A stretch of DNA of 28,433 nt, from the NCBI GenBank assembly GCA_965242865.1, contig CBDETK010000004.1:1-28433 (forward strand), written 5' to 3'. Shown one piece after another: positions 2,158 through 27,153 of the stretch. The stretch comes from Candidatus Latescibacterota bacterium. Lineage in GTDB: Bacteria; Latescibacterota; UBA2968; UBA8231. The translations under genes were made by a program, and so were the position numbers. Each line of letters begins with the position of its first letter. Position 1 is the stretch's first letter. The notes beneath the pieces were generated by a model. That model was not told the origin of the DNA and ran no database searches. It was given only the letters and a program-made list of their open reading frames with translations.

Positions 2158-2168
2158 TGTTGTACCCT

Positions 2169-2205
2169 GCATCTCTCACGGGGTGAGTTGGGAGTGGATT
2201 GAAAT
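2169..2205 (+). repeat. Solitary CRISPR-repeat-like unit 1
   Basis: GCATCTCTCACGGGGTGAGTTGGGAGTGGATTGAAAT: stem CTCTCA/TGGGAG plus 3' GTGGATTGAAAT; intergenic. Confidence 0.75.
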
Positions 2206-2219
2206 TGGCTTGTGTTCCC

Positions 2220-2247
2220 GTGTGGCCAGCCAAGCGGCTGGCCACAC
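2220..2247 (+). other. Perfect 12-bp hairpin downstream of repeat unit 1
   Basis: GTGTGGCCAGCC-AAGC-GGCTGGCCACAC; no U-tract follows. Confidence 0.8.
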
Positions 2248-2267
2248 CGCACTCAAGGGAGGCTATC

Positions 2268-3263
2268 ATGGCCCAAAAAAAACGAAAGCAACATCGGTAT
2301 GACATAGGCGCGGGGGGGGCGGCGGATGGGGCGACCTTGCGTGCTCGTTGGAAGCTCGGCAGCATCACGGCGGCTATTCGTCAGGCGTTGGCGCGGTCGG
2401 TGGCGGACGACCCTCCGGTGGCGGATGTAGCGGCGCTGGTGGCGGACGTAGAGTCGGCCAAAGAGGTTTTGTGGCGCGCGGTGCCCCCCGTGGGGCATGG
2501 GCGCGAGGCCCTCCTGCTGGCAGACCATTGTCGTATTGCCGTCGCGGATCTGGTCGATTACAAACGTCGGCTCCAGGCTATTTCGAATTCGTATGCGAAG
2601 TTGGAGGCGGATCGCGACGGGTACAAGCGGTCGCTTGCGGAGTGCGCTTCGGAGCGCGATGGGATGCAGGAGACCGTGCTCACCCTCCGGGCGGAGCGCG
2701 ATGCGTTGCAGGAGGATGTGGCAACCCTTAGGGATCGGATACGCGAGATGGAGGAGGTGCATCATAATACGGTGGAAGCGCAAACGGCGTTGCGGCGGGA
2801 GGCGCTGGCGACTCTCGTTGAGGCGGGGTTGTGCGACCGTGATACGATGCCGCTGCAGGCGGGTGTCAACCAAGCCAGAGACCGGTTCCACAGGGTGCGC
2901 GAGGATGTCAAAGCGCTGGAGGCCCATATAGACGCCTTGAAAGCGCGGGAGAAAGAGCGCAACGACCACTTCGAAAAGTCCCAGCGGGAGGCGGTGCAGG
3001 CTCTCGTAGAGGCGGGGTTGTGCGATGAGTGGAAGGCTGTCGATACGCTGAGCGCCAAAATAGCCCAAGCGGTGGAAAATTATCAGTGGTCTGTTACGAA
3101 TTGGGGGCGTCTCCAGGACGACCGCGACCGTATCAAGCGACAGGCCGAACGGGACGTAGAAAGCGCCCGGGTGCGTTGGATGATGTGGACGTGTCTGTCC
3201 TTTGCGGCGGGCGCGTCGTTGGCGGTGCTGGCTCTGGTGGCGTTCGGGGGCTTTTGGCAGTAA
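2268..3263 (+). CDS. Coiled-coil protein with a C-terminal transmembrane helix
   Basis: GGGAGG RBS + ATG 2268. Long heptad-like E/R/L/A-rich region, internal repeat REA...LVEAGLCD x2, hydrophobic C-terminus (WMMWTCLSFAAGASLAVLALVAFGGFW). Confidence 0.8.
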   Translation: MAQKKRKQHRYDIGAGGAADGATLRARWKLGSITAAIRQALARSVADDPPVADVAALVADVESAKEVLWRAVPPVGHGREALLLADHCRIAVADLVDYKRRLQAISNSYAKLEADRDGYKRSLAECASERDGMQETVLTLRAERDALQEDVATLRDRIREMEEVHHNTVEAQTALRREALATLVEAGLCDRDTMPLQAGVNQARDRFHRVREDVKALEAHIDALKAREKERNDHFEKSQREAVQALVEAGLCDEWKAVDTLSAKIAQAVENYQWSVTNWGRLQDDRDRIKRQAERDVESARVRWMMWTCLSFAAGASLAVLALVAFGGFWQ

Positions 3264-3394
3264 AAACAGGGCGCGGCTTGGTGTGGGAACCGTTCCCAAT
3301 CAGCGCGGCGTTTCGTCTCTCTAAAGGAGCCGGATTATCCGCGTCGCGGTCTAAAGGTCACCGGGCCGCGCCCACTAACCGAAGGAGAGGAATC

Positions 3395-3907
3395 ATGTTG
3401 TTGGATGAAAAGCAGTTGGAGGATTTGAAGCAGGAACAAGCGGAGCACGAGGCGGAGCTGGCTCCGGTACGGGAACGGTTGCTCGAAGCCCGTGCGCAGT
3501 TGGCGGAGGCGTCGGAGGGGATCCGCACCCGTCGGGACATGGAGCCGCGCCGTGCGGCGTTACCCTTTTTGTGTCGGCGCAACGAGTTGGAGTTGGAGTA
3601 TGACCGCGTGAAAGCCCAGTTGGATCGGGTGGCCGTGAAGATCGATCTGGGCAGTAACCCGCATTTGTTCCCTCTCAGGCCGGACGAACCGGAACATTAT
3701 ATGCTCGTTTGGGAGACGACCCTCCACGAGCAGGTGTGGGTGCGGCGCGATGCGCCTATCGACGATCTGCCGCCCACGGTCCGCGAGAGTTTCCGAAATC
3801 GGCTATTAGATGAGGAGCAGAAACGCGAGGCGGCGGAGGGCCGCCCCACCTACCAGGCTACGAACTACTGGGCCGGCGAGGAGGAGGATGACGAAGATGA
3901 AGACTAA
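3395..3907 (+). CDS. Hypothetical protein (N-terminal coiled coil, acidic tail)
   Basis: AAGGAGAGG RBS + ATG 3395; protein-like composition; operon context. Confidence 0.75.
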   Translation: MLLDEKQLEDLKQEQAEHEAELAPVRERLLEARAQLAEASEGIRTRRDMEPRRAALPFLCRRNELELEYDRVKAQLDRVAVKIDLGSNPHLFPLRPDEPEHYMLVWETTLHEQVWVRRDAPIDDLPPTVRESFRNRLLDEEQKREAAEGRPTYQATNYWAGEEEDDEDED

Positions 3908-4268
3908 GACCGAACAACCGTTCGCGCCTATGCGTAAGGGGCAGGTCATTGCGGTGGCTCGGGTCTGGTGGGACGAGGCGGAGGTGGTCTGGGGGTTTAC
4001 GCTCGCCCGGGTGGTGCGTACCAATCGCGAGGGGTTTGTGACGCACTTCGTCTTGAGCACGCGGGACGGGTTCCCCGATGCAACGCCGCGCAAGGCGACC
4101 CAAGGCAACACGCTGGGCATTACCGCGTGTTATGATATTGGGTGGGGCGCTCAGTCGGTGGGCGACCGCTTAGCGGGCGTCGTCTGGCCCAATCTCAAGG
4201 CGGCGCGGAAGGCGATCCGTGCGGCGTATGACGACCTGCCCCCACCGGAAAAAGGAGACCTAGCATGA
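3897..4268 (+). CDS. Hypothetical protein
   Basis: GGAGG upstream of ATG 3897 (3888 is an alternative start); overlaps the previous stop. Confidence 0.7.
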   Translation: MKTKTEQPFAPMRKGQVIAVARVWWDEAEVVWGFTLARVVRTNREGFVTHFVLSTRDGFPDATPRKATQGNTLGITACYDIGWGAQSVGDRLAGVVWPNLKAARKAIRAAYDDLPPPEKGDLA

Positions 4269-4292
4269 CCGAGCGCCGTAGCGTAGTAGCCT

Positions 4293-4329
4293 GTATCTCC
4301 CGCGGGCTGAGTCGGGAGTGGATTGAAAC
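4293..4329 (+). repeat. Solitary CRISPR-repeat-like unit 2
   Basis: GTATCTCCCGCGGGCTGAGTCGGGAGTGGATTGAAAC (37 nt); stem CTCCCG/CGGGAG. Confidence 0.8.
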
Positions 4330-4331
4330 CG

Positions 4332-4787
4332 ATGAGTAAGCCTACGCGCGGTCGGTCCCGCAGCCCCGTGTCCCGCGGCGAGCATGATGACCAGATACGG
4401 GCGTTGTATGAACGTGGCTACACCCACGCTGAGATCGCGGAGCGGGTTTGTTCAAACCGTACGACGGTCAGCTATCGGATCAAGGCGTTGGAGCTTACGC
4501 GGCCGGCGGGACCTCCCCGTCGGCCGCGCATCATCACGAGGCGCGGGAAGCTGAAGTCTGGGGCCTACGACAAGGCCGCCTATGACCCACACAAACGCCT
4601 CGCGGCGGATATATTGGCTCCCTTGTGTGAGGTTGCGAAATACGAACCAGACAGCAACGAGGGACGTCTGGCGCGCACCCAACTGCGTTGGGCGATGGGT
4701 ACTATCGAGTTGAACATCATTGGAGCGTGCATTACAATACTGGATGTGGAGCGGCAAGTCGCTGAAATTTTAACGAAGGAGGAGTAG
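4332..4787 (+). CDS. Helix-turn-helix DNA-binding protein
   Basis: IRALYERGYTHAEIAERVCSNRTTVSYRIKAL is a typical HTH pattern. Confidence 0.8.
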   Translation: MSKPTRGRSRSPVSRGEHDDQIRALYERGYTHAEIAERVCSNRTTVSYRIKALELTRPAGPPRRPRIITRRGKLKSGAYDKAAYDPHKRLAADILAPLCEVAKYEPDSNEGRLARTQLRWAMGTIELNIIGACITILDVERQVAEILTKEE

Positions 4788-5261
4788 ATGAACAAACCAC
4801 TCAAACGAATGCTCGATCAGCACACCGCACGGGTTGGTGAGGCTATTCAGTCCCTCGAGGATAAGCTCGCCCAAGCCAAGGGGGCGGCACATGCGGTTAG
4901 AGCTCGAAGGAGAACGAAACGCTACGCGAGGAACAACAAACGGCTGACACAGCAACTTGAGGCGGCCCGACGCTACGGGCTAATGGCAGCCAGTATGAAT
5001 AATCCGCACGTGTGGGTGCAACATTACGACGGCATGGCCGGTCGTTTTTTCAAGCAATACGCCAAACGGGCTCGTTGCGCCCTGGTGATCTCCCGAAAGA
5101 CCATGTTCACCGCGGGAAGAAAGGGCGGACGTGGTTTGCGCGTATCAGCCACGGGGCGGGGGGGGCGGTGCCCTATCGACGGGACCCCGATTCCAGTTGC
5201 GATGTCATATACCAATCGGGCTTTGACGACGCCCGAAGCGGCGATGTTGTGGAGCGGATAA
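4788..5261 (+). CDS. Hypothetical basic protein
   Basis: AGGAGG RBS; ATG directly after the previous stop. Confidence 0.7.
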   Translation: MNKPLKRMLDQHTARVGEAIQSLEDKLAQAKGAAHAVRARRRTKRYARNNKRLTQQLEAARRYGLMAASMNNPHVWVQHYDGMAGRFFKQYAKRARCALVISRKTMFTAGRKGGRGLRVSATGRGGRCPIDGTPIPVAMSYTNRALTTPEAAMLWSG

Positions 5262-5321
5262 TCAAGTAGCAGCGATCGACAACCTAATAACCAACCAACA
5301 AACCCAACGGAGGAAGTGAAG

Positions 5322-5492
5322 ATGAACGAGCAACATGAAGCGATGGAGCAAGCGCAGGACGATGCCAAGAGCGATGCGTCCCATGAGGGCGTCCGTATGC
5401 AGAACGCGCACGGCGGCGAGCTGGTGATCAACGAAGGGCTGGTGATGTACCGAAAAGTGCTTTGGGCGTTGCCCGAGCGCAAGACGCCGTAG
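5322..5492 (+). CDS. Small hypothetical protein (56 aa; not in the ORF track)
   Basis: A/C-rich leader and GGAGG RBS; MNEQHEAMEQ...LWALPERKTP*. GTG 5316 is an alternative start. Confidence 0.6.
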   Translation: MNEQHEAMEQAQDDAKSDASHEGVRMQNAHGGELVINEGLVMYRKVLWALPERKTP

Positions 5493-5511
5493 CGTAGTAG
5501 CGTAGGATCCT

Positions 5512-5584
5512 GTGTCTCCCGCGGGGTGAGTTGGGAGTGGATTGAGTAGTATTTCTCTCCAAATTTTGGAGAGTGGATTGAAAT
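5512..5584 (+). repeat. Two adjacent CRISPR-repeat-like units (3 and 4) of different types
   Basis: GTGTCTCCCGCGGGGTGAGTTGGGAGTGGATTGA (5512-5545) and ATTTCTCTCCAAATTTTGGAGAGTGGATTGAAAT (5551-5584; 8-bp stem CTCTCCAA/TTGGAGAG). Confidence 0.75.
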
Positions 5585-5641
5585 TGGAACAAGACGTGCT
5601 GGCGCGTGCCCTGCGGCGGCTATCGGATTGAACCCTCACCC

Positions 5642-5682
5642 CAACGCCCCTGTATCGCCTTCTGAGCGGCACAGGGGCGTTG
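5642..5682. terminator. Strong hairpin between the convergent early and late operons
   Basis: CAACGCCCCTGT...ACAGGGGCGTTG 12-bp inverted repeat. There is no clear U-tract, so terminator function is inferred from position. Confidence 0.55.
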
Positions 5683-5736
5683 CTATGCTATGACGCCAGT
5701 GGGCGTCCCCCAGCGCGACACGGGGCATCCGGGGCG

Positions 5737-8700
5737 CTAATCGACCACTTGGAACGTGAGCGGCATATAGATTGTTTCTGTGCCGTCCGACGCGATCAGC
5801 ACCGCCGGCCGGGGGTATAGGTCGGCGGTGCTTTGTGCGTTGGCCGACAACTGAAAGACGTTGCGCGCTAAGGTGACACTGCGGGCTATTTGCACCGGGC
5901 AGCCCGTCGTGTACGCAAAGCGTAGCGTGTAGGTGATCGTACGCCCCGCCACCGTGCTGGCATACGAGAAGTCCGCATTAGCGGTCTGTCGTTGCGTTCC
6001 GCGTGTCCCCTCATTGAACACCACAAAGTTGCGCGTCCCTTTCTTGATGGGATAGAAGGTCTGCGCGGGGATGCCCGAGGCGTTCGGTAGCTCATACGCC
6101 CACGTCAGGTTATTGGCGGCGGCCGTGGACGGCTGCACAAACGTCTTGAGGGTGCTTAGCTTGACGAAGCGGTTGGGGTCGCCGCTGGTGCTCTCATCGC
6201 TGACGACCATGCGGTCATCATCGTGCAGGGTCGTTAGCTCGGTGGTGACGTCATCGTGCAGGTCGAACGGGTCGGCGGTGGGTGTGCTACCCGTGCCAAT
6301 GAACGCCTTGAGCGTTGCCAGCGTAACATACCGGGTAGGGTCGCCGCTGGCCGACTCGTCGCTCACCACCATGCGGTCGTCGTTGTGTAAGGTGGTTAGT
6401 TGCGTCGTAACGTCGTCATGCAGGTCAAAGGCGTACCGATTATCAAGGGCCTGCAAGGTGATAAAGCGATTGGGCTGGTTGGCCGCCGACACGTCGGCCA
6501 CCACGAACTTGTCGAGCGGGTCTAAGCCCGAGCCGACCAACTGGGTGGGTACATCGATGTTGAGATGGAACCCCGGAACGTTCGCCCACTGACCTGTGTT
6601 GTTGACATACTGGAGCCTGCGGGACCTACTGCTATAGAAGGCATTGCCTTGTGTTCGAAAAAGCAAGTAACTCGCGAGAGAACCAACCGCCACATAGCGG
6701 TTGGGGTCACCTGATACGGACTCGTCACTAATAAGCATCCGATCCTCAGCATGTAAGGATGAGATAGCCGTGGTTACATCGTCATGCAAGTCAAACGAAC
6801 CGCCGCCACTGCTTAGGCCCGCTGTGAAGAACGTCTTGAGGGTGCTGAGGGTGACGTAGCGGTTCGGGTCGCCCGACGCCCCCTCGTCGCTAACCAACAT
6901 CCTATCGTCGTTATGCAGGGACGGAATGACCGTGGTAACGTCATCATGCAGGTCAAAATTCTTTAGCCCCGCCGTTATGAACGTCTTGAGGGTGCTGAGG
7001 GTGACGTAGCGGTTCGGGTCGCGGCTGGCCGACTCATCGCTTACAACCATGCGGTCGTCGTTGTGCAAGGTGGTTAGTTGCGTAGTAACGTCATCATGCA
7101 GGTCAAACGAGAAGAATAACTTGAGGGCGCCTAACGCGACATAGCGGTTCGGGTCGCCCACGAGCGACTCATCGCTAATCAACATCCTATCATCATTGTG
7201 CAGGGCCTGAATGACCGTGGTAACATCATCGTGCAAATCAAAATTGCCGCCGCCACTACTTAACCCCGCCGTGAAGAATGTCTTGAGGCTTGCCAACGTG
7301 ACATAGCGGTTCGGGTCGCCGCTTTCCGACTCATCGCTAATCAGCATCCGATCCTCATCGGCCAACGCCGCCGCCACCGTACTCACATCATCATGCAGGT
7401 CAAACGGGTCCGCCACAAACGTCTTGAGGGTTGCCAGCGTGACGTAGCGGTTCGGATCGCCACTAACTGATTCGTCGCTGATTAACATCCGGTCGCTGTT
7501 GTTCAGCGTTGTTAGTTGCGTAGTAACGTCATCATGCAGGTCAAACGCGAAGAACGGCTTGAGGCTTGCCAACGTGACATAGCGGTTCGGGTCGCCGCTT
7601 TCTGACTCATCGCTAATCAGCATCCGATCCTCATCGGCCAACGCCGCCGCGACCGTACTCACATCATCATGTAGGTCAAACGTCTCCACCGCCGGGACCG
7701 CCACATCCTCCCAACTATCTCCATCGTAGTATTCAAGATTGGACGGCGACGTGTTATCGTAGCGTACGTCATTCGCCGCCACGGGCAACTCAGTAACTGC
7801 CACATCCTCCCATTCGGCCATCGCCGTATAGCGTTCCAACTTGGACGGGCTAGTACGCGCATAGCGTATGTCGCCAGCCCGTGGGTCGCGCACGGGCACG
7901 TTCTGCCAAGCCGTGCCACTCCAATACTCAAGGGATGTTTCGCTGGAGGAGTCATAGCGCACATCGCCGCCCCCCGTGGTAACATCCACTTCAATAGGTA
8001 GGCTTATGCTCTCGTTGCCGCTGGTCGCTATCCACGTGAACGACACCACTTGCTCTGTCGAGGGAGCAGGGGCATTGATGGTAACAGCACCCGTCATTAA
8101 GTCCACGTCTAACCACGTAGGGAGCTCCATCGTGCTATATGCAATAGCGGCCATATCCACGGTGGAGACCGCCACGGGCAACACCGGCGAGAGCGGTGCT
8201 GTGACGGGCCGCCCCGCCTCAGCACGAAAACGCCGCGCGCCCGCCGTAGCCCATGTAAGCGTCGCGGCCGGGGCAACGGTCACATCGTCAATAGCAACAT
8301 AGATAGGCAAGCATATCGCCTCGTCGCCGCTCGTGGCGATCCATACAAACGACTCCGGCCCTTCGGGCGCATCCGCGATAGCCGTTACAATGCGAGTGGT
8401 AAGGTCCACACTGAGCCAGCTTGGAACATCGACCGCTGTATAGACGATAGACGCGCCGCTGGTCGTAGAGGATGCTTGAGGTAACGTGGGCGTTACCGGG
8501 TCTAACACACGGCTGCCCTCAACAATATCAATACGACGGGTGCCGCCCGCTTGGAAGGTGAGCTCGGCAGCAGGAACCGTGCCGGTTATAATTACGGGAG
8601 AAGTGGTAAGCCGTATTAGATTATCAGTAATAATATGGCCGCTAAGTAAAAAATTGAGGAGATTATATGAACTGTCTCTTCCATACCAACCGACTGAATC

Positions 8701-11700
8701 GGTTGCGGTCCCTATATTTGTTTCACTTGATTGTCTTACTGGTAATGCTCGAAGTTGTGAAACATCCAGCAGTTTACCTTCACCGGCACGATTTACTGCA
8801 ACAGGTGCGACCACCCATCCATCGGCTGGTATCGTTTTTGAACTTAGAGTTTCAAACGCATTTACCCCCGACGTTAGTTTCAAGTCAACTGAATACACTT
8901 CAACCGTAACTTGTCCATCCCCATAAAAACTACTTAGGCTTAATTTACCAGAACTACTATTACGATAAAAGGAAAAAGTCTGATCCCCGCCGTTCAAGTT
9001 AATGGTCGCATTATAACTAAACGCATATTCATTGTCTTGAGGATTAGTAGGACGACGAGCCTGTAATAATATGTTGGAATTTGCTGGTATGGTAATATCA
9101 GTATTTAGAATACCATCATAAGGAACCGAAAGAGAAACTCCTCCAATACGAGTGATTGCACTTCCCCCGCTTGTAGCGGGCAACGCCAATGTATGAATAC
9201 GACAAGCCGTTCCACTTATAATTTTCCCCTCATTATTAACTGAAAAACTACCTTCTATTCGTTGCCGGAAAGAACTAATAGCATCTGTTCTAAACCCATT
9301 CGCTCGCACTTCTGCGGCCCTTGCCCAACGTTGCGAACCTTTCTTACGTGCTGTTGGAGCAAACTGAATCCATAACCACCCGGTGGACGGGATGGTAAAC
9401 GACGACATGCCACTGCCCGAATACGTCCCTAACTCAGTAAGGGTAAAGTCTGGCGGCACACTGGTAGTTGCCGCAATAGACAGACTAATCGTTTGACAGA
9501 TCGCCTCTTCGCCGCTCTTAGCGATCCACACAAACGAAGCAAACGTGCTGACACTGGGCGCGTTGGCATTCGCCGTGACCTGCCGGGTAGTCGTATTGAC
9601 ACTCAGATACGAAGGAACGCCGCTGGTCTCGTAGGTGATCGTGCCGCCGCCGGTCTTGATGGCTTGCGGCAACGTGGGCGTCGTGGGGTTAAGCGTTTGG
9701 GTGCTGGGCGTAACCCCTATCATCGTGTCGCCGCCCGACGCCCACGTAAGCGTTGCTTGCGCTTCGGCGCCCAGCATAGCAATCTCAACGGCTATGACTT
9801 GGCTAATGGTCTCGTTGCCGCTGGTCGCCTGCCAGATGAACGACGCCGGCCCCGTCGGCGCTACATCCGTGGCGGTGACAGCCCGTGTGTTTACATCGAC
9901 GCTAAGCCATGTAGGGACGTTCAACGCCGCATACACAATCGCCGCGCTATCGGCTTGCATCGCTTCGGGGAGCACGGGAGCCACCGGGTCTAAGACATTG
10001 CTTTCCTCCGTGGCCCCAATACTAAACGGCTCGGTATTGCTCCACGTTAGCTTAGACACGACACCCGCGGTATCGGCGGGCGTCGTCACCTCCACCGTGC
10101 TCGCCGGCACGGAGCCGGTCACGAGCGTCCCCGTGGGCAGCCACCACGCGGCCCTGATGCGTATCTTCGTCTCAGCGGGTAGGCTGTCCAGAAGGATGTC
10201 GTCGCCCACGTCAACGCTCTCGCGCCGCCCTAAGCGCGTATAGGTCTCGACCGCGCCGGGCAACGGTGCCGCGGTAAGCGTCCCCCACTCCAACGAGACC
10301 TGCGGAAAGACGGCGTTGGTTATGTTAACCGTCACGCGGTCATGCAACAGGTCCTTCGTGGTGATCGTGGGGGGTGCGGTCGCCTGCTCGGGCAACGGCG
10401 TCGTATCGATCTCGCCTAACGCCGTCGAGGCACCAAACAACGTATCGGGATCCTCGCGCAGATAGGCTTGAAGCGTAAGCTCTTTCGTTACATTCGTCCT
10501 GACCACCCTAAACCGCTCGGCCGCGATCCCTTGCTGTGGGTCGGTCAAGGTGACATAATCCCCGGGGCGCACCGTGAGAAGCGCCAGGTTATCGCGGGGG
10601 CGTAAGACGTACGTGCTGCCCCTAAAGAGGCGCAGGTGGCGCAGGGCCAGCGCGGTAAGGCGTTGCGCGGTGTGTGCATTAGACACCAACGAGACATCGG
10701 GCAGCCGCTTTTTTAGGCGCACGTTGCCATCATCGGTCAGCGCATCGCTATTCGTCAATTGGATGTCGTAGGGCTGATAGTTCGCTTGGGCGGCCTGCTC
10801 GATCTTACAGGCAACCACGTTGATACGCTCCTCCACCGGGGGAGCGACATAGAACGGATTGCTCTGAACAATATCATCCGCGCTGAGCACCCGTGCGCCC
10901 GACGTGTAGGCGCGCCCCGGCTCGTAATAGACCTTGTCGCCATGCTCGACGACCGCGCCCTGCCACGCAAAGTCTAACTCCTCCTCCACCGCCCGCGGGT
11001 CATCACTATACTGCACAATCCCCGACACCGGGTACTGGATCGTGCGCGGCACCAACGCCACCGTGACCGTGCCACCAATCTGCTGAATAATCTTTTGGTG
11101 ATCCGCCGCCGAGATCGTCCACGAGGCATAGCCCGTGTGCCAGGTGGGGTCGGTCTGCCCCGACAGGTCCGCCCGCCGCAACGTACTCGTCGGACGGCCC
11201 TCGCCGTCTATGTCATCGGGATGGAGCCAGACCACCCCGCCATTCGCCAGCGTTATTTTTACTGAAACGCTATGCGTCCGCAGCCAATTCCCGATAGGTT
11301 GGGTCAGCGTGACGGTATTCGCGGTCTGCGTAGCCGCCTCCACGTTGACCCGGGCGGTATGCACCGCCCCCGTAGCACTTATCTCTATGTTCGTCAGCAG
11401 ATGGCCCGACGCATAAGTGCGTTGCGCGTCCGTGCCCGTGGGTGAAAAAGTGCGCTCACTCCCCAACTGCGACACGGCGCAAGAAACCGACAGCACGTCC
11501 GCAAACTCGACCGACCGCGCGCATTCGGCTACTGCCGACGTGAACGCGGTGCTATCCAACGACGCATCCTCATCGCCAAACACGCGCTTGCGGTAGTCGT
11601 AGCGGACCACCGCCGCATTTTCGGAAAACGTGGGCGTCGTCTGTCCGGGCCAAGTCGTCTTCAGACCGCGCACGAGAAAACGGATGTTCGGTACAGAATC

Positions 11701-12315: not shown

Positions 12316-12336
12316 TTCTGTTTTTTTCTCTAAAAC

Positions 12337-12349
12337 CTTCGTATATTAG
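12337..12349 (+). promoter_or_regulatory. Putative promoter of the mini-array (CTTCGTATATTAG)
   Basis: TATATT -10-like hexamer in a motif shared with 18205-18217 and 18346-18358; about 17 nt upstream of the first repeat. Confidence 0.65.
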
Positions 12350-12364
12350 GGTAGAGCAAGCCCA

Positions 12365-12539
12365 GTTCTTCCGCGGGCTAAGGCGGAAGTGGATTGAAAC
12401 TGAGGTTACGGAGCCGTCGCTGGCGGTGGCTATCGGTCTCCCCTTGCTTTGGTGAGGGGAGTGGATTGAAACATCATACGATACAGCCCCTCGGGCGCTT
12501 GATCCGGTCTCCCCTTGCTTTGGTGAGGGGAGTGGATTG
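12365..12539 (+). CRISPR. Phage-borne CRISPR mini-array: 3 repeats, 2 spacers, no cas genes in window
   Basis: R1 12365-12400 (GTTCTTCCGCGGGCTAAGGCGGAAGTGGATTGAAAC); spacer 35 nt; R2 12436-12472 (GTCTCCCCTTGCTTTGGTGAGGGGAGTGGATTGAAAC); spacer 34 nt; R3 12507-12539 is identical to the first 33 nt of R2. Confidence 0.9.
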
Positions 12540-12540
12540 C

Positions 12541-12576
12541 CGCCCGTCAACGCTTTTGGTTGGCGGGCGTTTTTTT
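12541..12576 (+). terminator. Rho-independent terminator closing the mini-array
   Basis: CGCCCGTCAAC/GTTGGCGGGCG stem (one G-U pair) followed by a T7 tract. Confidence 0.85.
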
Positions 12577-13075
12577 ATGCCCGCGCCAGCGGCCAGTCAA
12601 ATCGTTTTTCGCTCACCTCGTACATAAAATCCAATCCAATATCGGGGTCGCCCCCGCGCTCCTGCTCGCGCTGCCGCTCCGGTGTCCACACCGCATCCGG
12701 TTCCAACAAATTAAACTTGCGCTTGGAGACTTCCAACAACCACTCGCCGGCCTTATCGACGGTGCTCTGTCCCGCCGTCCCCGTGAAGCGATAGCCGGTG
12801 TCAGCCCATGCGCCGCCATCCGTCCGCGAAAGCAGATAAACCGACACGGTAGCCGGCCCCAAGTCTTCCGGTAGGGTCTGCCGTTGGGCGTCCGAGAGGG
12901 CGATAGCCACCGCCAAGGACGGCTCCGTACCCGCCTCCAGCGTGTGCTGCGGGAAACGGACGTCGAGCAGCCGGCCCCCCCCGCGATACACCTCGCTCTC
13001 AAACGTAATGTTTTGGGGGAACGTCGCCAAGCGTAGGGATGTTCCGATCTTCAAGAGAATAGCCGCGAATTGCAT
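12575..13075 (-). CDS. Minor tail / baseplate hub-like protein (166 aa)
   Basis: Lies between the distal tail and tail-tip genes. 'ITFESEVYRGGG' and C-terminal 'WT.E.Q......D.GLDF......F.W' pattern resembles siphophage hub N-terminal proteins. Confidence 0.7.
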   Translation of the reverse strand: MQFAAILLKIGTSLRLATFPQNITFESEVYRGGGRLLDVRFPQHTLEAGTEPSLAVAIALSDAQRQTLPEDLGPATVSVYLLSRTDGGAWADTGYRFTGTAGQSTVDKAGEWLLEVSKRKFNLLEPDAVWTPERQREQERGGDPDIGLDFMYEVSEKRFDWPLARA

Positions 13076-16179: not shown

Positions 16180-16283
16180 GCCGCTTCTTGCGGCTCCTTT
16201 TATTGCGTCGCGGGGTTGGGTTCGCTACCCGCCCCGCATCTACTTCGCAATAAAAGGCTCACACGCAATAAAAGGAAAATCCC
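16180..16283 (+). promoter_or_regulatory. Structured 5' leader of HNH gene 1
   Basis: 5' hairpin, anti-SD segment TCCTTTTATTGCGT, TCGCT-loop hairpin + ATCTA, two copies of CGCAATAAAAGG; same architecture as 18363-18467. Confidence 0.7.
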
Positions 16284-16877: not shown

Positions 16878-17240
16878 CCCTTCCTCCCGCATTTTTTTTG
16901 TGCGGTCCCACGCCGCTTCGAGTGCCTCTTTTTTCATTTGGCGCTCAGCCTTTTCCCGCGCCGCCGCTTCCGCATCCCACTGGTCGAACCGCTTGAGCCG
17001 TTCTTCGCGCGAAAGGAATTGCGGAGCCAAGTCATATACATCCAACCGCCGGGCTTCTTTTCCTGTGTTCGCGGTATAGAAGAACTGTGTGAGTTGGGCC
17101 AGCAGGGACTGTACCGGATAATCGCCCCACGGATACCGATCAAAATGGAGCTCCCACGCTAACCGCTCGCGGCGCGACAGAGCCAACACGTCCCGCAGGG
17201 GTTGGCCCGTCGCCCGGGCGATTAGGAACGGGTAGGGTCG
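16866..17240 (-). CDS. Tail assembly chaperone downstream frame (lambda gpT-like), probably made by -1 frameshift
   Basis: Protein-like frame (PFLIARATGQPLRDVLALSRRERLAWELHF...PWG) with no obvious start of its own. It overlaps the end of 17222-17599 in the -1 frame and lies upstream of the tape measure gene. Confidence 0.7.
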   Translation of the reverse strand, partial: RPYPFLIARATGQPLRDVLALSRRERLAWELHFDRYPWGDYPVQSLLAQLTQFFYTANTGKEARRLDVYDLAPQFLSREERLKRFDQWDAEAAAREKAERQMKKEALEAAWDRTKKMREEGLLE

Positions 17241-17599
17241 GCCTCCACGGCGTCCTCCAGCGACGCCACGTTCAGCCCACACACCTCCATGCAACGAACC
17301 GCCAGCGGCGAGCCGACGCCCCCCGACCGAGTAAGCACCCGCCAAGCCATATCATCGGACGTCAACTCCGGCAAGCAGCAGCGCAACGCTTTCAGTTGCA
17401 AGGTCAAGCCCCGTTCCACTTCCTCCGCACGGCCGCTCGGCTTATTCTCTTCGGCCCATAATGCCAACTGGGTCACCTGTGCGCGGGATGGCTCCGTTAA
17501 GTGAAACGACCCCGCACCGCTCTCCACCACGAGAAACTCGTCGGAAAGCAGTTCGTCCAGAACCGCTTGGTTCTTGGATGGTGCTTTGGCTTTAGCCAT
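17222..17599 (-). CDS. Tail assembly chaperone (lambda gpG-like)
   Basis: Size, synteny, GGAGAGG RBS and overlapping downstream frame. Confidence 0.7.
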   Translation of the reverse strand: MAKAKAPSKNQAVLDELLSDEFLVVESGAGSFHLTEPSRAQVTQLALWAEENKPSGRAEEVERGLTLQLKALRCCLPELTSDDMAWRVLTRSGGVGSPLAVRCMEVCGLNVASLEDAVEADPTRS

Positions 17600-17867
17600 T
17601 TTCCTCTCCATTCTTCAAGTGAGACCCTTCAAACGTACCGCCTTCACCGCGTCCGACGACAATGCCTTTGGCTTCGGTGAGCACCCCGCCGGCGACCAAG
17701 AGAATAATATCGCGCACGATCTGCGGGGGGCTTTCAGACTTCCAGATCGCCATGCACACCCCGAACACGGCCACCGCCACAAAAAGGAACAACGCCCCCA
17801 TGACAACATGGGCGGCTACTTTTTCAACGCAATCGCGTTTGAAGCCATTGGAACTATGGTTGTCCAT
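17592..17867 (-). CDS. Small membrane protein, holin candidate (91 aa)
   Basis: Two hydrophobic segments (VVMGALFLFVAVAVFGVCMAIW; IILLVAGGVL) and a charged C-terminus. Confidence 0.55.
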   Translation of the reverse strand: MDNHSSNGFKRDCVEKVAAHVVMGALFLFVAVAVFGVCMAIWKSESPPQIVRDIILLVAGGVLTEAKGIVVGRGEGGTFEGSHLKNGEENG

Positions 17868-18074
17868 CTACCCCCCGGCCGGCGGCTCCTGCTCACTACG
17901 ATAGATGCACTCCCGCACCCACTGAACCTGCCCATTCGGGCTTCGCGGAGCCACCTGCACCCAAACAGTCAAGTGGTTATCATACGCCCCCGGCGACTCA
18001 TATTCATACCCCGCCCCCTTCTGACTCAACCGAACAATACGATCAAACTCGGCCGCATTCAAACTGATGGACAT
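17868..18074 (-). CDS. Hypothetical protein (68 aa)
   Basis: GAGGAGG RBS upstream; stop abuts the next ATG. Confidence 0.65.
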   Translation of the reverse strand: MSISLNAAEFDRIVRLSQKGAGYEYESPGAYDNHLTVWVQVAPRSPNGQVQWVRECIYRSEQEPPAGG

Positions 18075-18204
18075 ACTCGTTCCTCCTCAAGTGAAGTAAA
18101 GCAGTTCGTTGGCAAATAATAATGCGGCGACAGGGCCAACCAACCCGCCGCCGCGAACTAAACACATAGCAACTCTCTGTTGAGAGAAAGGATTGCTCTA
18201 CGCA

Positions 18205-18358
18205 CTAATATACGAAGAAACCACGCAAAACGCACAAAAAAAATCAAAGCATCTCGTTGGCCATGATAATCAGGGCCAGCATCACCGCACAAAATAGAAC
18301 GGTTCCCGTTTCCATACGTAGGCTCGCTTTTTTTATTCCTAATTCCTTCGTATATTAC
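18205..18358. promoter_or_regulatory. Divergent promoter pair with the CTTCGTATATTA motif
   Basis: - strand copy at 18205-18217 and + strand copy at 18346-18358, each preceded by a T-tract. Confidence 0.65.
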
Positions 18359-18362
18359 TAAT

Positions 18363-18467
18363 GTCGCATCATGCGACGCCTTTCGTCAAGGCTCGCGGGT
18401 TGGGGGTCGCTCCCCCGCCCGCATCTATGGCCCAACGAAAGGACACGCTTGACGAAAGGTCTAACCC
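18363..18467 (+). promoter_or_regulatory. Structured 5' leader of HNH gene 2
   Basis: 5' hairpin GTCGCA/TGCGAC, anti-SD CCTTTCGTCAAG, TCGCT-loop hairpin + ATCTA, two ACGAAAGG copies. Confidence 0.7.
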
Positions 18468-19046
18468 ATGATCAAACAATGCAGTGAATGCCCGAATACA
18501 GTCTCGCACTTTAACGCCAAGACGTGCTCTACGGGGTGTTCCAAGAAACGAAAAAAACGAATAGCCGCGGCGTACTACCAAAACAATAAAGCCGAAATAT
18601 CCCAAAAGAGTAAGCAGCATTATGCCGCTAACCGAAAAGCCATGATTGAGCGAGTTATGCGCCACTACTACGCCAATCCGCAGGCAGGGAAAGAGCGAGC
18701 TAAGAAGTGGAACAGAGCACATCCAGATGTCATAAATAGGCTTACCAGGGCACGATATAAACGGCTGGGAGGAAGGGGCTATCGTCGTCATCTTCCTGCA
18801 CTGCTCGTCAAGTATGGTTATATCTGCCAAATTAAAGGCTGCGAACTGCCGAGAGACCATTCCAAGATTGACGTGGACCACATCGTCCCTGTGGATGCCT
18901 GTATTGCTATGGGCTGGACTAAAAAGCAAATAAATGATCCGTACAATCTTCAACCGGCTTGTCCTTCTTGCAACTACGCCAAAGGGAACCAATGGGATGG
19001 CACCATGCCGGGCGAACCACCGGCTCAAATGGACTTGTTTGAGTAG
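18468..19046 (+). CDS. HNH endonuclease 2 (paralogue of 16284-16877)
   Basis: CQIKGC...IDVDHIVP...NDPYNLQPACPSCNYAK; shares MIKQC.ECP start and WDGT..GE.PAQM.LFE end with HNH 1. Confidence 0.92.
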   Translation: MIKQCSECPNTVSHFNAKTCSTGCSKKRKKRIAAAYYQNNKAEISQKSKQHYAANRKAMIERVMRHYYANPQAGKERAKKWNRAHPDVINRLTRARYKRLGGRGYRRHLPALLVKYGYICQIKGCELPRDHSKIDVDHIVPVDACIAMGWTKKQINDPYNLQPACPSCNYAKGNQWDGTMPGEPPAQMDLFE

Positions 19047-19051
19047 CGTTT

Positions 19052-21421
19052 TCAATTTACGGTCCAAACCTCAAGCGGCGAGATCGTCCGCACCAAATCG
19101 CAGGTAATGATCAACTCGCCAGTCGCCTGCCGCCCCACGCGCAGCGTATCCACGCGACCCGCGGCCGCATTTTGCACCTCGACCTCAATAGCCCCCGTGG
19201 TGGAAACCGCATTACTGCTATCGCCTATCCGCGAAGTCACCAGCCGCCCCAACTCCGAGCCGCTGATCAGCACATCGCCGCAGTGAAAACCGCCCAAGAC
19301 GAGCCGAAATAGCTTGTCGGTATAATCACTCGGCAGTGCGTAGCCCGTATCGGCCCATTGATTGAGGCTGGTGATAGCCACGTTCTGCGAGTGCTGCTTG
19401 ACCACCCCCGGCGGGATCGTCGGCGCGTTGTTGATGTCATCATAATCAACCGGACGCTTGGCGACCGGGATAGCATCCTCATTGCCTACCAGCGTCCACG
19501 GCTCGACGTTGGGCGTCAACCGCATCCACCCCGTGGGCGTCCGCATCGTCGCCGGCTGGTATTCCCAGATATTGCGAAAATCGGCGGTGCTACTATACTC
19601 CCTTTGAAACCCTCTATGATACTGAAGGATCGCGGCGATCTCGCGGCGCGTCGCCCGCGGCTGGTGCGAGTAGTCGAGCGACGCAATCGTGCCCGTCGCG
19701 CCCGACACCGACTGGGTATTCCGCGAGAAAGACAGTTGCCCCAAGTTCGTCCACGTCTGATCGCCCACCCGACGGACACGTACATAGAACGTAGGGTTAA
19801 CCGCCTGCGTGACGGCCATCGTGCGGATCGCAACGGTAAGGCGCTGATAGCGCGGGTCGCCGCCGTCCACGAAACCCAACGACCAAGCGATGTCAAAGGG
19901 GGCACCGTCCGCTGCGGTATTGCCGGCGATCGTACCATTGCCGCGCCAGTCCGCGTCTTTGGAAGCCCCGTCGAGGATGACCGTGCCGCGACCGCGGTTT
20001 TCAACCGCCATTTCTTCGGTGGTCAGACCAATGATATAAGGAGCACCCGTGCTCGGCTCAACCAGTTGTATCGTCCCCTCCGCAACGCCCGTGGTGGCTG
20101 TGGGCGCATCCACGCTGTGAGGCAATATGACAAGCCCCCCGGCATTGCCGTGCGTCACAGCGCGTATGGCGGCCTCTAAGCCGCTAATAAAGCGGGCGGC
20201 GATGTCGATATGCTCCAGTTGATCGGGGGCATCCCATTGCGCTTGCAATTTGGATGCCGCGGGGATGTCCGCGATCGGCAAGTTGTAGTACCAATAATGG
20301 TCGTCGTCACCCAAGTAGGTTGCGCCCGTAGTGGCAATAACGAGAGCCTCCGCCTCGTCGCCCGTGACCACCCGAAAGAGCGCCAAGTCGTCGGTCGAAG
20401 GCTGTATTTCGTAGAGCGTCTTGGGAACGCGGAAAGCAATGTTCTTGCCCGTCTCACGCGCCGCCACCGTCCGCGTGGCGGTGTACGTGGCCGCCTTCGC
20501 GGTCGCCTCCGTATAGGCATCGTCCGCTATGGGCGACAACCACAGGCCATCCTCGGCGCGCCACGAGCCATCGACCACATCGTCGTTGAGCCGCTCAACA
20601 TTAGGCAGGGCCGCCTTAATCGCCGCGACCGCATCGGCGGCCGTGAACGGCGGCGACGCCGCCGGAATATCCGGGCGGTTGTCTATATCCGTGTTCCAAT
20701 CCCAATTCTGACCGCCCAACTCAGCCTTGTCTTTGACGTGGCTTCGTATCAGCGCGACCACCGCGGCGGCGTCTAACGTGGCCCCATTACCGCCCCCGCC
20801 CTGCCCCGTGGGCAAGTGGGAGGCAAGGAAAACCGTATTGGGACCGGGCGACCGAGTGCCGAACAGGAACGCATACGCCGACTCCACATAATCACGAGCC
20901 TGATCGTTGGCCTCTTGGCGCACCGTCGCAAACGTTAAAATATCATCGGTGAACGCCACATCCGACGGCAAGTTCTCGCGCCGTATCGGCACGATATGGC
21001 CGTCGTCATACCGCTGCGCCCAGTCCTGCACATGCCGCAAAAACGCTTGAAACACCGGGCTGGTGGAGCTATGCGGGGGAGCCAATACGTTATCGGTGGT
21101 TTCGTGCAAATGGATGTCGTCCAGAAAACGAATGGTTCGGCTCCATACCGCCACCTCGCCCACGTTCGGCTCGGTGTTCATAATGGTCACCCGATAGTAA
21201 TGACCCGCGGGCGTGGTTTCCAGAAAGATGTCGAGCATCCCCTGCGCGTTGGTACGCCCCGAAAAGCTCGTGGGGACCACCACGCCCGTCGCGGCGTTCA
21301 CCCACCGCGCCGTCTCGCCGGTACGACCATACTGATCGACCGCCTCAACCCGCACCAACTGGTACGGCAACACGCCCAAGTCAAGGTTTAACGTGCTCAC
21401 ATGTAACGTATGGAGTGCCAT
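19052..21421 (-). CDS. Putative tail fibre / minor virion protein (789 aa)
   Basis: Long A/T/G/D-rich ORF in the structural operon with Gly linkers; no recognised family. Confidence 0.6.
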   Translation of the reverse strand: MALHTLHVSTLNLDLGVLPYQLVRVEAVDQYGRTGETARWVNAATGVVVPTSFSGRTNAQGMLDIFLETTPAGHYYRVTIMNTEPNVGEVAVWSRTIRFLDDIHLHETTDNVLAPPHSSTSPVFQAFLRHVQDWAQRYDDGHIVPIRRENLPSDVAFTDDILTFATVRQEANDQARDYVESAYAFLFGTRSPGPNTVFLASHLPTGQGGGGNGATLDAAAVVALIRSHVKDKAELGGQNWDWNTDIDNRPDIPAASPPFTAADAVAAIKAALPNVERLNDDVVDGSWRAEDGLWLSPIADDAYTEATAKAATYTATRTVAARETGKNIAFRVPKTLYEIQPSTDDLALFRVVTGDEAEALVIATTGATYLGDDDHYWYYNLPIADIPAASKLQAQWDAPDQLEHIDIAARFISGLEAAIRAVTHGNAGGLVILPHSVDAPTATTGVAEGTIQLVEPSTGAPYIIGLTTEEMAVENRGRGTVILDGASKDADWRGNGTIAGNTAADGAPFDIAWSLGFVDGGDPRYQRLTVAIRTMAVTQAVNPTFYVRVRRVGDQTWTNLGQLSFSRNTQSVSGATGTIASLDYSHQPRATRREIAAILQYHRGFQREYSSTADFRNIWEYQPATMRTPTGWMRLTPNVEPWTLVGNEDAIPVAKRPVDYDDINNAPTIPPGVVKQHSQNVAITSLNQWADTGYALPSDYTDKLFRLVLGGFHCGDVLISGSELGRLVTSRIGDSSNAVSTTGAIEVEVQNAAAGRVDTLRVGRQATGELIITCDLVRTISPLEVWTVN

Positions 21422-25586: not shown

Positions 25587-25607
25587 GGTAGAACTCCTCT
25601 TTTGGTT

Positions 25608-25931
25608 TTAAGTGGCGGCTACACAAAACAACGTCAGCCACCGTCGATCAAACTCTTTGACCCAGCGTATCGACCACGTGCGCCCCACATCATCCACGAC
25701 ATACCAGCGGGGCGTCATAGCCCGCAACGTCGGGCTCCAACGAAAACGAAACGTGGTCTGCCATTGCTCGACGTCCACCCCCACCTCCTCCGTGTCGCGC
25801 CCCCCGCGGTCTATCCGCGTAGCAAAGACAATATGCTCCACCGGGGTATTGCGCTGCGGGTCACCGTGCGATGTAGTGCCCGTAACTGCACCGGGTTCGT
25901 AGAGTCGGATACGACGCGTACCCTCAGCCAT
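25608..25931 (-). CDS. Head-closure / head-tail adaptor (SPP1 gp16-like)
   Basis: 'RRIRLYEP...G......VFA.........F..RW...........W.I..V..FDRRWLTL.C' pattern. Confidence 0.85.
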   Translation of the reverse strand: MAEGTRRIRLYEPGAVTGTTSHGDPQRNTPVEHIVFATRIDRGGRDTEEVGVDVEQWQTTFRFRWSPTLRAMTPRWYVVDDVGRTWSIRWVKEFDRRWLTLFCVAAT

Positions 25932-26014
25932 GGGTTAGTCCCTTCTATGAGGCCGGGGTGTTTCCACCCCGGAAATTATACGAACCCGGTGCAGTTTCGG
26001 ACACTATTCATCCA

Positions 26015-26581
26015 CTACAACGCGGCGTGAAGGGGACGCAAGGGCCCCAACAGCCGATCTAACGCACGAAAATCATTCGGCAGGCCCCCGCCGTTGTATA
26101 GCTGCCGCACCAGCAAGACCAACGCCTGCGCCAGCACCGTATCTTTGGGACGACGACCCAGCGTCAACCCGAGGGTCACATTCAGACGCCAGCGCAGATC
26201 CCGAGCATGGGCCGGCCACCCGGCCGGCGGCGCGTTCACGACAACAACATCCGTCGTCGGCGTCACCGTCGTCTCCACATCACCCCAATCATCCGTTTCA
26301 ATCCACTCTCCCTCCGAAGAAGGAGAGAAATACGCGATGCTCTGAAGACTCTTGAACCCTCGCGCCTCAAACACGAGCGCATTCATAGCGCCCATGGGCG
26401 GGTTCGTCGTAAGAACACTCGCCCTATCCACCAGCGGGTAGTCTATGCTTGCCTCGACCCACCCCACCGCCGACGCCAACTGATCCAACAGAAGCGTATC
26501 GTGGTAGGTCTCGTCCACCGCTAAACGCAATTCTAAGCGCAAGCGATCTAACGAGCATATATCGGTAGGCTGAGCGACCAT
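26015..26581 (-). CDS. Head-tail connector (HK97 gp6 / SPP1 gp15-like)
   Basis: 'SLDRLRLELRL......DTLL....SA..WVE' and 'QALVLLVRQLY' motifs. Confidence 0.88.
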   Translation of the reverse strand: MVAQPTDICSLDRLRLELRLAVDETYHDTLLLDQLASAVGWVEASIDYPLVDRASVLTTNPPMGAMNALVFEARGFKSLQSIAYFSPSSEGEWIETDDWGDVETTVTPTTDVVVVNAPPAGWPAHARDLRWRLNVTLGLTLGRRPKDTVLAQALVLLVRQLYNGGGLPNDFRALDRLLGPLRPLHAAL

Positions 26582-26587
26582 AGAGCG

Positions 26588-27001
26588 TTAGGAGCGCGTA
26601 GGCTTAGGCTTGGGACGCTTAGCGTCGCGGGTCTCCACCTCGACGCCCTGCCGACGCGCAAGCTCGACCAATTTTCGTGACGTATCTCGATGCGCCAACA
26701 GACCCACGTCATGGATTCGCAACAAATTAACCAGCATCTCTTCCTCCGTTTCTTGGCGCACCGCCAGACCGCGCGACACCATATCGTCCACCTCAGAGGC
26801 CGGGACCAGCACTAACTGACCGCGCTTATACGGACAGCCCCCCGGGGCCACCCAATGGGTACGAAGGCGCACCCGCTCCAGCGGAATATCCGCCTTGCGC
26901 TTCTCACCCTCCAAGCGGTGCTCCTCCAACTGGGCGATCTCGGCTTGGCGGCGACGCGCTTGCTCGCGAGCCGCCGCCTCCTTCATCGTCATCGTAGGCA
27001 T
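26588..27001 (-). CDS. Hypothetical capsid-adjacent protein (137 aa)
   Basis: GAGGAGAGGGG RBS; 'YKRGQLV.VP......MVSRGLA' motif is seen in small post-capsid phage proteins. Confidence 0.7.
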   Translation of the reverse strand: MPTMTMKEAAAREQARRRQAEIAQLEEHRLEGEKRKADIPLERVRLRTHWVAPGGCPYKRGQLVLVPASEVDDMVSRGLAVRQETEEEMLVNLLRIHDVGLLAHRDTSRKLVELARRQGVEVETRDAKRPKPKPTRS

Positions 27002-27016
27002 ACCCCTCTCCTCTCT

Positions 27017-27137
27017 GTTTCAATCGTTTCAATCCACTCCCGACTTAGCCCTCGGGAGAACGGGGCTTACGCTAAGGCTACTGCGCCTTGATCTTCAACT
27101 TGTTTCAATCCACTCCCGACTTAGCCCTCGGGAGAAC
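27017..27137 (-). CRISPR. Repeat-spacer-repeat unit after the capsid gene, plus a 9-nt repeat remnant
   Basis: Two identical 36-mers GTTCTCCCGAGGGCTAAGTCGGGAGTGGATTGAAAC (- strand; 27102-27137 and 27026-27061) separated by 40 nt; extra GATTGAAAC at 27017-27025. Confidence 0.8.
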
Positions 27138-27153
27138 TGGGCTTACGCCCGCC

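Follow-up and report, generated by a model that had tools for sequence, protein, structure and literature searches.

Solitary repeat units are a recently recognised route by which phages disarm CRISPR-Cas systems with RNA. In the available part of the original report (Camara-Wilpert et al., 2023, PMC10651486) such RNA anti-CRISPRs (Racrs) were validated, among them one of type I-C that is co-transcribed with an acr gene. For type I-C systems, the accessible sections of a review state that Cas5d recognises the base of the repeat stem-loop together with the 3' overhang and that cleavage leaves an 11-nt tag (PMC5965381), and two-spacer type I-C viral arrays are reported in the accessible sections of two further texts (PMC11656645; preprint 10.1101/2024.10.29.618823). 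Little explored are the design of decoys that outcompete real CRISPR RNAs (crRNAs) and the tolerance of a phage towards nuclease sites in its own messages. Here we analysed a window of 28,433 bases, the entire contig C4 (CBDETK010000004.1) of a 13-contig Candidatus Latescibacterota assembly and, judged from its predicted genes, a tailed phage, in which repeat-like units stand between and within the genes. Six of these units, here called class A, are preceded by a 5-nt extension that can pair with the loop of their own hairpin. The best explanation, to which we assign a probability of roughly 40%, is that class A units are Racr-like mimics of the type I-C repeat held by a pseudoknot clamp.

The window holds ten units ending in the type I-C 5'-handle (U)GGAUUGAAAC, and these fall into three hairpin classes (Table 1). 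The CUC/GAG base of the stem and, at the 3' end, the 11-nt tag UGGAUUGAAAC are common to all classes and to the host repeat, while the upper stem and the loop vary by class. Behind the hairpin all ten units carry GTGGATTG(A/C), the tag following directly in the phage units as (U/C)GGAUUGAAAC. The handle ends exactly as TGGATTGAAAC in five units and is likewise exact in the first mini-array repeat; it ends in ..GAAAT in two units, in ..GAGTA in U3 and in ..GCCGC in the last mini-array repeat. A class A unit (n = 6 in the window) measures 42 nt, that is the 5-nt extension plus a 37-nt equivalent of the repeat, and its hairpin has a stem of 6-7 bp and a loop of 8-10 nt, where the host repeat has a 10-bp stem and a tetraloop. 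Class B (U4 and U10) is defined by GTATTTCTCTCC...GGAGAG followed by the handle, and class C, the two repeats starting at 12436 and 12507 with a 34-nt spacer between them, matches the host repeat at every base but one (C27 to T). The phage units resemble the host repeat in both sequence and fold. Class A units do not follow a regular repeat-spacer-repeat spacing: they are solitary, except for U5 at the head of the mini-array and for U8 and U9, which form a 76-bp tandem duplication.

A preliminary description of this DNA had named six units with loop-complementary 5-mers, and all six were recovered in place with their 5-mers correctly quoted; two further units (5549-5584 and 26295-26333) and the role of U5 as first repeat of a mini-array were absent from it. 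Its remark that the repeats at 12436 and 12507 lack the extension also holds, as both fold into a 10-bp stem with a tetraloop and have neither a free loop nor a conserved extension. Chance 5-mers were seen in the flank of the former (two, G-U-rich) and none in that of the latter.

The host repeat is found on the chromosome of the assembly (contig C13, 5.6 Mb), in an array of 41 identical repeats of 37 nt each which differ by one base from the phage mini-array repeat 12436-12472. The genes cas1, cas4, cas7/csd2, cas8c/csd1, cas5c and cas3 adjoin this array and make up a complete type I-C set. Cas6, which the preliminary description had named as a protein whose binding the element might tune, was not found: the 93.6%-complete genome gave no match to TIGR01877, nor did the 17 open reading frames (ORFs) scanned beside a second array. 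With a type I-C host set, in which Cas5c processes the repeat, and with no Cas6 found, the relevant nuclease is therefore Cas5c, and the proposal of Cas6 had to be dropped.

For the comparative analysis the six class A units of the window were aligned with six copies on contigs C2 and C11, which are a second, mosaic variant of the window phage (92-99% identity where aligned). The resultant alignment was gap-free and included 12 copies, 8 of them distinct. Extension nucleotides 1-5 pair with loop nucleotides 17-21 of the same unit in 40 of the 40 cells of the distinct copies. Three pairs are invariant; pair 2-20 is GC in four copies, CG in three and UG in one, and pair 5-17 is UG in five and CG in three, with change on one side only. 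Values as high as those observed were reached by 10 of 500 shuffles when this helix was scored alone, and registers slid by 1-3 columns were 25-60% paired. Apart from the repeat stem and a version of it shifted in register, an exhaustive scan for helices of 4-7 pairs with at least 95% pairing returned the extension/loop helix only, which was therefore not selected from a large set of candidates. The repeat stem (10-16/25-31) is 91% paired overall and 100% across its first six pairs, and three of its pairs show two-sided changes. The four positions differing between U5 and U8 are exactly two compensatory stem pairs, and stem pair 15-26 is GC, GU or AU within group I, which comprises U1, U2, U3 and the C2 copies at 2837 and 3678.

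The exchange of G-C for C-G that the preliminary description named as compensatory is real and is located at positions 2 and 20, between U2 and the C2 copy at 3678. These two copies share ~12 nt of upstream flank and differ at three of their first 39 positions (2, 20 and 26), of which the first two are partners and the third turns a stem G-U into G-C. U3 differs from its orthologue on C2 by a C to U change at position 2, which still pairs with G, and by one linker base; between group I and the other copies (group II) position 5 is U or C, opposite G. Three of the four columns of the linker between extension and stem are variable. The pairing holds in all copies, but the claim of covariation has to be narrowed to pair 2-20 and, by parsimony, to one event.

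Among the 40 cells, 6 are U-G wobbles that would be A-C mismatches on the opposite strand, which points to the sense RNA as the folding strand. The same cells bear on a DNA-level explanation, in which the half-sites AGCCC/GGGCT, 11 nt apart, would be a palindrome serving as the site of a dimeric protein or forming a cruciform, and in which symmetric changes of the half-sites would mimic covariation. We regard this as very improbable: the G-T wobbles break the symmetry at the DNA level, two half-site sequences would need two proteins, and on the transcribed strand the sites are in every case part of an RNA element that resembles the repeat.

The extension/loop helix and the repeat stem cross, and the crossing is kept in all eight distinct copies. 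The structure assessed was as follows:
[[[[[....(((((((]]]]]...)))))))...........
The two core helices (5 bp and 6-7 bp) use different bases, with connecting loops of 4, 0-1 and 3-4 nt, and because they share no bases they could coexist. Both show pair-preserving change and therefore both appear to matter. The class A RNA would be either an H-type pseudoknot or a two-state switch, and the pseudoknot appears to be the simpler reading. A rough additive estimate gave -10.4 to -16.9 kcal/mol for the pseudoknot; the most stable nested folds came to -9.5 to -15.1 kcal/mol. The minimum-free-energy folds of U5 and U8 also contain a helix between linker and handle (columns 5-9 with 34-38), which was rejected because group I does not keep it. 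The preliminary description had seen in class A a pseudoknotted RNA longer than the repeat and not a simple copy of it; the greater length, the lack of a matching array repeat among those found and the two crossing helices agree with this, whereas pseudoknot and alternative hairpin are indistinguishable here.

Relatives of class A were searched for with a covariance model and with a loop-plus-handle pattern. The covariance model scored the 12 copies at 58-69 bits and the host repeats, or anything else in the assembly, at 26 bits or less. The pattern matched one stretch in IMG/VR, a chance match in AT-rich coding DNA; 24 stretches in JGI metagenomes, none of which ends in GAAAC or equals a class A unit; and six stretches in GTDB species genomes, all by chance. 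Among 75 genomes of the host family, none carried this one pattern outside the present assembly, and two weak covariance-model matches in the same genomes were discarded as ordinary I-C arrays whose spacer ends fit by accident. Since the searches gave chance matches and ordinary arrays only, class A is not a copy of any array repeat found, and within the collections scanned it appears to be confined to this phage lineage. A broader scan of IMG/VR for other solitary I-C-like units returned at least 120 stretches; among the matches listed, 34 have a hairpin before the handle, 24 of them in two arrays and 10 of them solitary.

According to the preferred reading, class A units are solitary mimics of the host I-C repeat that would be transcribed on the sense strand within phage operons, with the exception of U5, which would be transcribed from its own promoter as the first mini-array repeat. 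Both elements reported to be read by Cas5c, the CUC/GAG base of the stem and the 11-nt tag at the 3' end, are kept in all units, which Cas5c may bind or cleave; in class A the upper stem is shortened to 6-7 bp and the loop widened to 8-10 nt. The upstream extension can pair with the 5' half of the widened loop, and since the strand on the loop side begins right behind the 5' arm of the stem, the two helices could stack into a compact H-type pseudoknot. The extension may thereby act as a clamp that keeps the weak repeat hairpin in a fold readable by Cas5c within long phage messenger RNAs (mRNAs). The pseudoknot might also make the end of the upstream cleavage product, or the 5' end of the U5 transcript, resistant to nucleases, and abundant, long-lived decoys occupying Cas5c, Cas7 and Cas8c would be the anti-CRISPR effect.

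Several observations weigh against this reading. Chance 5-mers able to pair with such a loop are common, being present in 16-46% of 12-nt phage windows if G-U pairs are allowed (2.4-5.1% with Watson-Crick pairs only), so that the ancestral pairing could have been accidental and inherited through duplication. The single covarying pair traces, by parsimony, to one event; the 12 copies all belong to one assembly and to two variants of one phage; and conservation in the extension does not exceed that elsewhere in the unit, with variation in 2 of its 5 columns and in 18 of 42 overall. When four random substitutions were placed on the observed branches, all pairs were kept in 1.2% of simulations and were kept together with a two-sided change in 0.6%, but the tree for this simulation was drawn by eye from the remaining columns and the helix had been noticed post hoc. 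On the structural side, nested alternatives are about equally stable, the additive estimate includes a pseudoknot penalty that was set at 9.6 kcal/mol and not computed, and a 3-nt loop across a 5-bp helix is near the steric minimum. In the pseudoknot-free ensembles, calculated with 35 nt of upstream context, the copies of group I prefer a hairpin of extension and loop (6-8 bp, P 0.14-1.0, compared with P 0-0.40 for the stem), and U1 has a third competing hairpin, CUCAC/GUGAG. The extension/loop 5-mer occurs in none of the ten listed solitary IMG/VR units with Watson-Crick pairs, and in one of the ten if G-U is allowed; mimics therefore do not generally need the extension. Finally, U10 lies within a structural gene, so that cleaving every unit would cut essential mRNAs.

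The evolutionary points among these bear on a rival reading in which the helix would have no function, an ancestral flank having been complementary by accident and duplicated with the unit, and the double change being luck or a templated quasi-palindrome correction. Besides the chance rate with G-U and the single covarying pair, it is favoured by the upstream flank, shared up to ~17 nt between U2 and U3 and between U8 and U9, which makes the copied segment longer than the repeat, and by the demonstrable duplication and movement of units (the 76-bp tandem at 27026-27177; the extra A+B pair in C2). It nevertheless seems somewhat unlikely, since all four inferred substitutions in the ten helix columns keep pairing (p ~0.012 under neutrality) next to a linker in which three of four columns vary freely, since the partner changes at 2 and 20 fall among just three differences between two close paralogues, and since helix arms of 5 nt are probably short for template switching. 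Judged from the alignment, the weight of the helix lies in a register kept in eight of eight distinct copies plus one compensatory change, and not in a single match; its evolutionary support is suggestive, not conclusive.

The ensembles of group I bear on a further alternative, a masking switch, in which the extension/loop hairpin of U1, U2, U3 and the C2 copies would compete with the stem and hide the Cas5c site, giving partial or conditional cutting of mRNAs. The minimum-free-energy folds of U1, U2, U3 and the C2 copy at 3678 agree with the group I ensemble, the extended hairpin being estimated at -7.2 to -9.3 kcal/mol compared with -4.6 to -8.2 kcal/mol for the stem. The position of U10 in a coding gene implies that unrestrained cleavage would be costly, and the type VI leader-repeat hairpin, which blocks processing according to the available part of its report (PMC13187072), is a precedent. 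In U5, U8, U9 and the C11 copies, however, the repeat stem folds (P 0.59-1.0), with the extension/loop helix near 0 in U5, U8 and U9, and the 5-bp core is kept in these three units although the stem wins there. The inward extension of the hairpin is not conserved either, as columns 6-16 and 7-15 pair in group I only and 7-15 does not pair in U1. Moreover, the stem also compensates within group I (pair 15-26), so that it too is under selection, and the 5-bp and 6-bp cores, having no base in common, need not exclude each other. We therefore consider the masking switch unlikely.

Genomic context was considered with regard to a role in phage gene expression. Nine of the ten units occupy intergenic positions and share the coding strand of the adjacent genes, with U8 and U9 after the capsid stop codon, the U2 handle just before a start codon and, on contig C11, a handle followed by a ribosome-binding site and ATG; in the host cas operon, repeat-like units stand directly before cas4 and cas1. 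Such positions would suit a borrowed Cas5c that cuts polycistronic mRNAs, the pseudoknotted hairpin stabilising the upstream message (e.g., that of the capsid) and the tagged 5' end the downstream one. A role chiefly in gene expression, in place of an anti-CRISPR one, is quite unlikely as an explanation of the units, given that U10 is inside a coding frame, that U3 and U4 close an operon and are followed by no gene, and that in the variant contigs some of these sites are without their unit (the U5 cassette is lacking, and a single unit stands for U8 plus U9 in C11). That class A is a new structural class of RNA anti-CRISPR, its loop locked into a pseudoknot by the upstream strand so as to give either a long-lived trap or a conditionally masked site, which would let the phage place many copies in its essential mRNAs, one class B unit even within a coding frame, and leave these mRNAs undestroyed while borrowing Cas5c to shape transcripts, likewise appears distinctly unlikely.

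Table 1. Coordinates of the repeat-like units and of predicted features of the phage contig (window positions).
Feature	Position	Strand	Details
U1, class A	2164..2205	+	Extension 2164-2168 ACCCT; loop partner 2180-2184 GGGGT; handle TGGATTGAAAT
U2, class A	4288..4329	+	Extension 4288-4292 AGCCT; loop partner 4304-4308 GGGCT; handle ends 2 nt before ATG at 4332
U3, class A	5507..5548	+	Extension 5507-5511 ATCCT; loop partner 5523-5527 GGGGT; degenerate handle TGGATTGAGTA; abuts U4
U4, class B	5549..5584	+	GTATTTCTCTCC..GGAGAG plus TGGATTGAAAT; without extension/loop pairing
Promoter-like motif TTCGTATATTAG	12338..12349	+	9 nt upstream of U5
U5, class A	12359..12400	+	Extension 12359-12363 AGCCC; loop partner 12375-12379 GGGCT; first mini-array repeat
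Mini-array	12401..12543	+	Spacer 12401-12435; repeat 12436-12472; spacer 12473-12506; last repeat 12507-12543 with degenerate handle
Intrinsic-terminator-like hairpin with T run	12541..12577	+	Closes the predicted mini-array transcript
Tape measure	13668-16160	-	
U10, class B	26295..26333	-	In frame within head-tail adaptor-like ORF 26015-26581
U9, class A	27026..27067	-	Extension 27067-27063 AGCCC; loop partner 27051-27047 GGGCT
U8, class A	27102..27143	-	Extension 27143-27139 AGCCC; loop partner 27127-27123 GGGCT; starts 10 nt past the capsid stop codon
Major head (capsid) protein	27154-28404	-	
Neck protein		-	
Endolysin-like gene		-	
Head-tail adaptor-like gene	26015-26581	-	
Dam-type methyltransferase		+	

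The unit within the structural gene, U10, with its 9-bp stem, UUCG loop and complete handle, codes for ..AYFSPSSEGEWIETDDW.. in the adaptor-like gene; it is unusual for a structural gene to contain a mimic of a CRISPR repeat. All of U2 lies in an ORF of 24 codons (4265-4339, plus strand) that has a strong ribosome-binding site and whose end overlaps the ATG of the next gene; the handle is read as EWIET in this ORF and likewise by the adaptor gene at U10. Another ORF, of 56 amino acids, acidic and with a good ribosome-binding site (5322-5492, plus strand), ends 14 nt before U3. Racrs are often neighbours of acr genes. By position only the ORF product is a candidate anti-CRISPR (Acr) protein; it matched no family, and neither it nor the other neighbouring ORFs gave a Pfam or PHROG match naming an Acr.

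Units of class A and class B abut without a spacer at three places (window 5507-5584, plus strand; C2:2837-2914; C2:3678-3755). Cutting of both abutting units at the expected sites (G31|U32) would plausibly give a spacerless RNA of 36 nt, consisting of a handle plus a hairpin, that could act as a dead-end decoy. The 76-bp tandem duplication at 27026-27177 (minus strand) comprises the last 24 nt of the capsid gene, the stop codon and a class A unit, with an extra 9-nt GATTGAAAC after U9, and contig C11 has one copy where the window has U8 plus U9. The C2 variant carries an extra A+B pair between two genes. As judged from these differences between variants, the units undergo copying and movement. 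TAGCGTA(G) motifs precede several class A units (4270-4290; 5478-5506; 27068-27085, minus strand), doubled before U3, and create stop codons in more than one frame.

The mini-array headed by U5 lies in a 262-bp stretch (12317-12578) that also includes the promoter-like motif and the terminator. This stretch is missing from C2 and from the variant contigs of DNA runs X2 and X4, which have 14 other letters in its place, and U5 with the two-spacer mini-array thus behaves as a cassette, as far as the compared contigs indicate. The promoter-like motif recurs at 18216-18205 (minus strand) and, with one mismatch, at 18347-18358 (plus strand). For the mini-array spacers no target was found in the assembly, in other contigs, in IMG/VR or near the host cas promoters, and the first 16 nt of either spacer had no match anywhere in the assembly with two mismatches allowed. 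Seed matches of 10 out of 10 were no commoner than chance (5 found, ~10.7 expected), and the best of them, within cas4, has no adjacent TTC, which is the protospacer adjacent motif (PAM) of the type. A regulatory mini-array of the Cracr type was not supported, as no PAM-flanked complementarity to a cas or toxin promoter was found in the assembly, nor was a mini-array directed against competing viruses, no spacer match having been found in other contigs or in IMG/VR.

The capsid protein of the phage is less than 31% identical to those of GenBank phages throughout, close relatives of this protein were found neither in IMG/VR nor in GTDB contigs, and the DNA around U8 and U9 had no match in GenBank phages. 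An ORF of 2192 amino acids (5737-12315, minus strand) belongs to no clear family and has internal DNA repeats at ~6140-7680, and its region is rearranged among the phage variants. Scans of the window gave no Rfam family and no tRNA. Contigs from four DNA runs of one study were compared with window positions 1-20000, and among the differences listed, beside which there are 576 more, none lies within a unit.

Further observations were made on the host chromosome. The second array (C13 4796369-4800839), of which 57 copies of one 37-nt repeat were counted, lies beside type III-A and III-D genes. The last 10 nt of its repeat, GGATTGAAAC, are common to the phage units; chromosomal matches of 92.5-100% identity exist for many of its spacers, and one spacer matches 18 places at 87.5-100%. 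The repeat-like units in the host cas operon are located at C13 3528170-3528138 and 3527423-3527369 (minus strand): directly before the cas4 ATG there is a degenerate hairpin plus CGGATTGAAAC, and before cas1 a leader-like stretch together with a degenerate repeat and one additional handle. They may be regulatory or processing sites like the intergenic units of the phage. No spacer of the host fully matches the window. Spacer 5 of the host I-C array (C13 ~3525527-3525493) ends with the reverse complement of AGAGTGGATTGAAAC and was therefore probably acquired across a class B-type unit of a related phage. Spacers 36-38 of this array match contigs C9, C12 and C6 over 26-31 nt with 90-100% identity, and a different mobile element in the assembly is therefore apparently targeted.

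Should the extension/loop helix prove real, mimics of repeats are able to bear tertiary structure not present in host repeats, and class A would offer a handle for probing the tolerance of Cas5c above the stem base. If the helix is only inherited chance, the finding shrinks to a further case of a phage with repeat mimics. As a test bed the locus is compact: it combines three hairpin classes, pairs of units that abut, a mini-array cassette that can be removed, and a host with type I-C as well as type III systems.

Compared with known systems, the type I-C pre-crRNA repeat (PMC5965381, accessible sections) likewise has a hairpin followed by an 11-nt tag, and stem base and tag are invariant in the phage units; class A differs from it by a shorter stem, a larger loop and the extension. 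The stretch 12359-12543 resembles the viral mini-arrays and Cracr, as far as they are described in the available texts, in having two spacers, host-like repeats, a promoter-like motif of its own and a terminator, and differs from them in that no spacer target was found here and that the first repeat is of class A and not host-like. In the Cas12a crRNA handle (PMC10200996, available part), too, a repeat-derived RNA contains a pseudoknot that is part of the Cas-bound structure. That pseudoknot, however, lies inside the canonical type V-A repeat, whereas the additional strand described here is outside the repeat and belongs to Class 1, type I-C. In the portions of the literature consulted, no repeat-borne pseudoknot was found in print beyond this handle, and the word pseudoknot does not occur in the available texts of PMC10651486, PMC11656645 and preprint 10.1101/2024.10.29.618823, whose supplementary lists of solitary repeat units, outside this comparison, might hold similar units. 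The nearest precedent for an upstream sequence pairing with a repeat would be the type VI leader-repeat hairpin (Migur et al., 2026, PMC13187072, available part), in which such pairing also alters what the Cas nuclease sees. There the leader pairs with the repeat of the host array and blocks binding and processing by Cas13b, whereas the extension of the phage I-C units pairs with the loop only and leaves the arms of the stem free. Racrs and solitary repeat units, as described in the available parts of PMC10651486 and of a review (PMC11656645), share with the units of this phage that they are solitary copies of a host repeat, are intergenic and keep hairpin and handle. The present phage differs in having ten units in three hairpin classes, one of them in a coding gene and some abutting, and in class A, which adds a 5-nt upstream extension paired to an enlarged loop. 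Class A would accordingly be a structural variant of the known solitary-repeat RNA anti-CRISPR elements, with thin but non-trivial evolutionary support.

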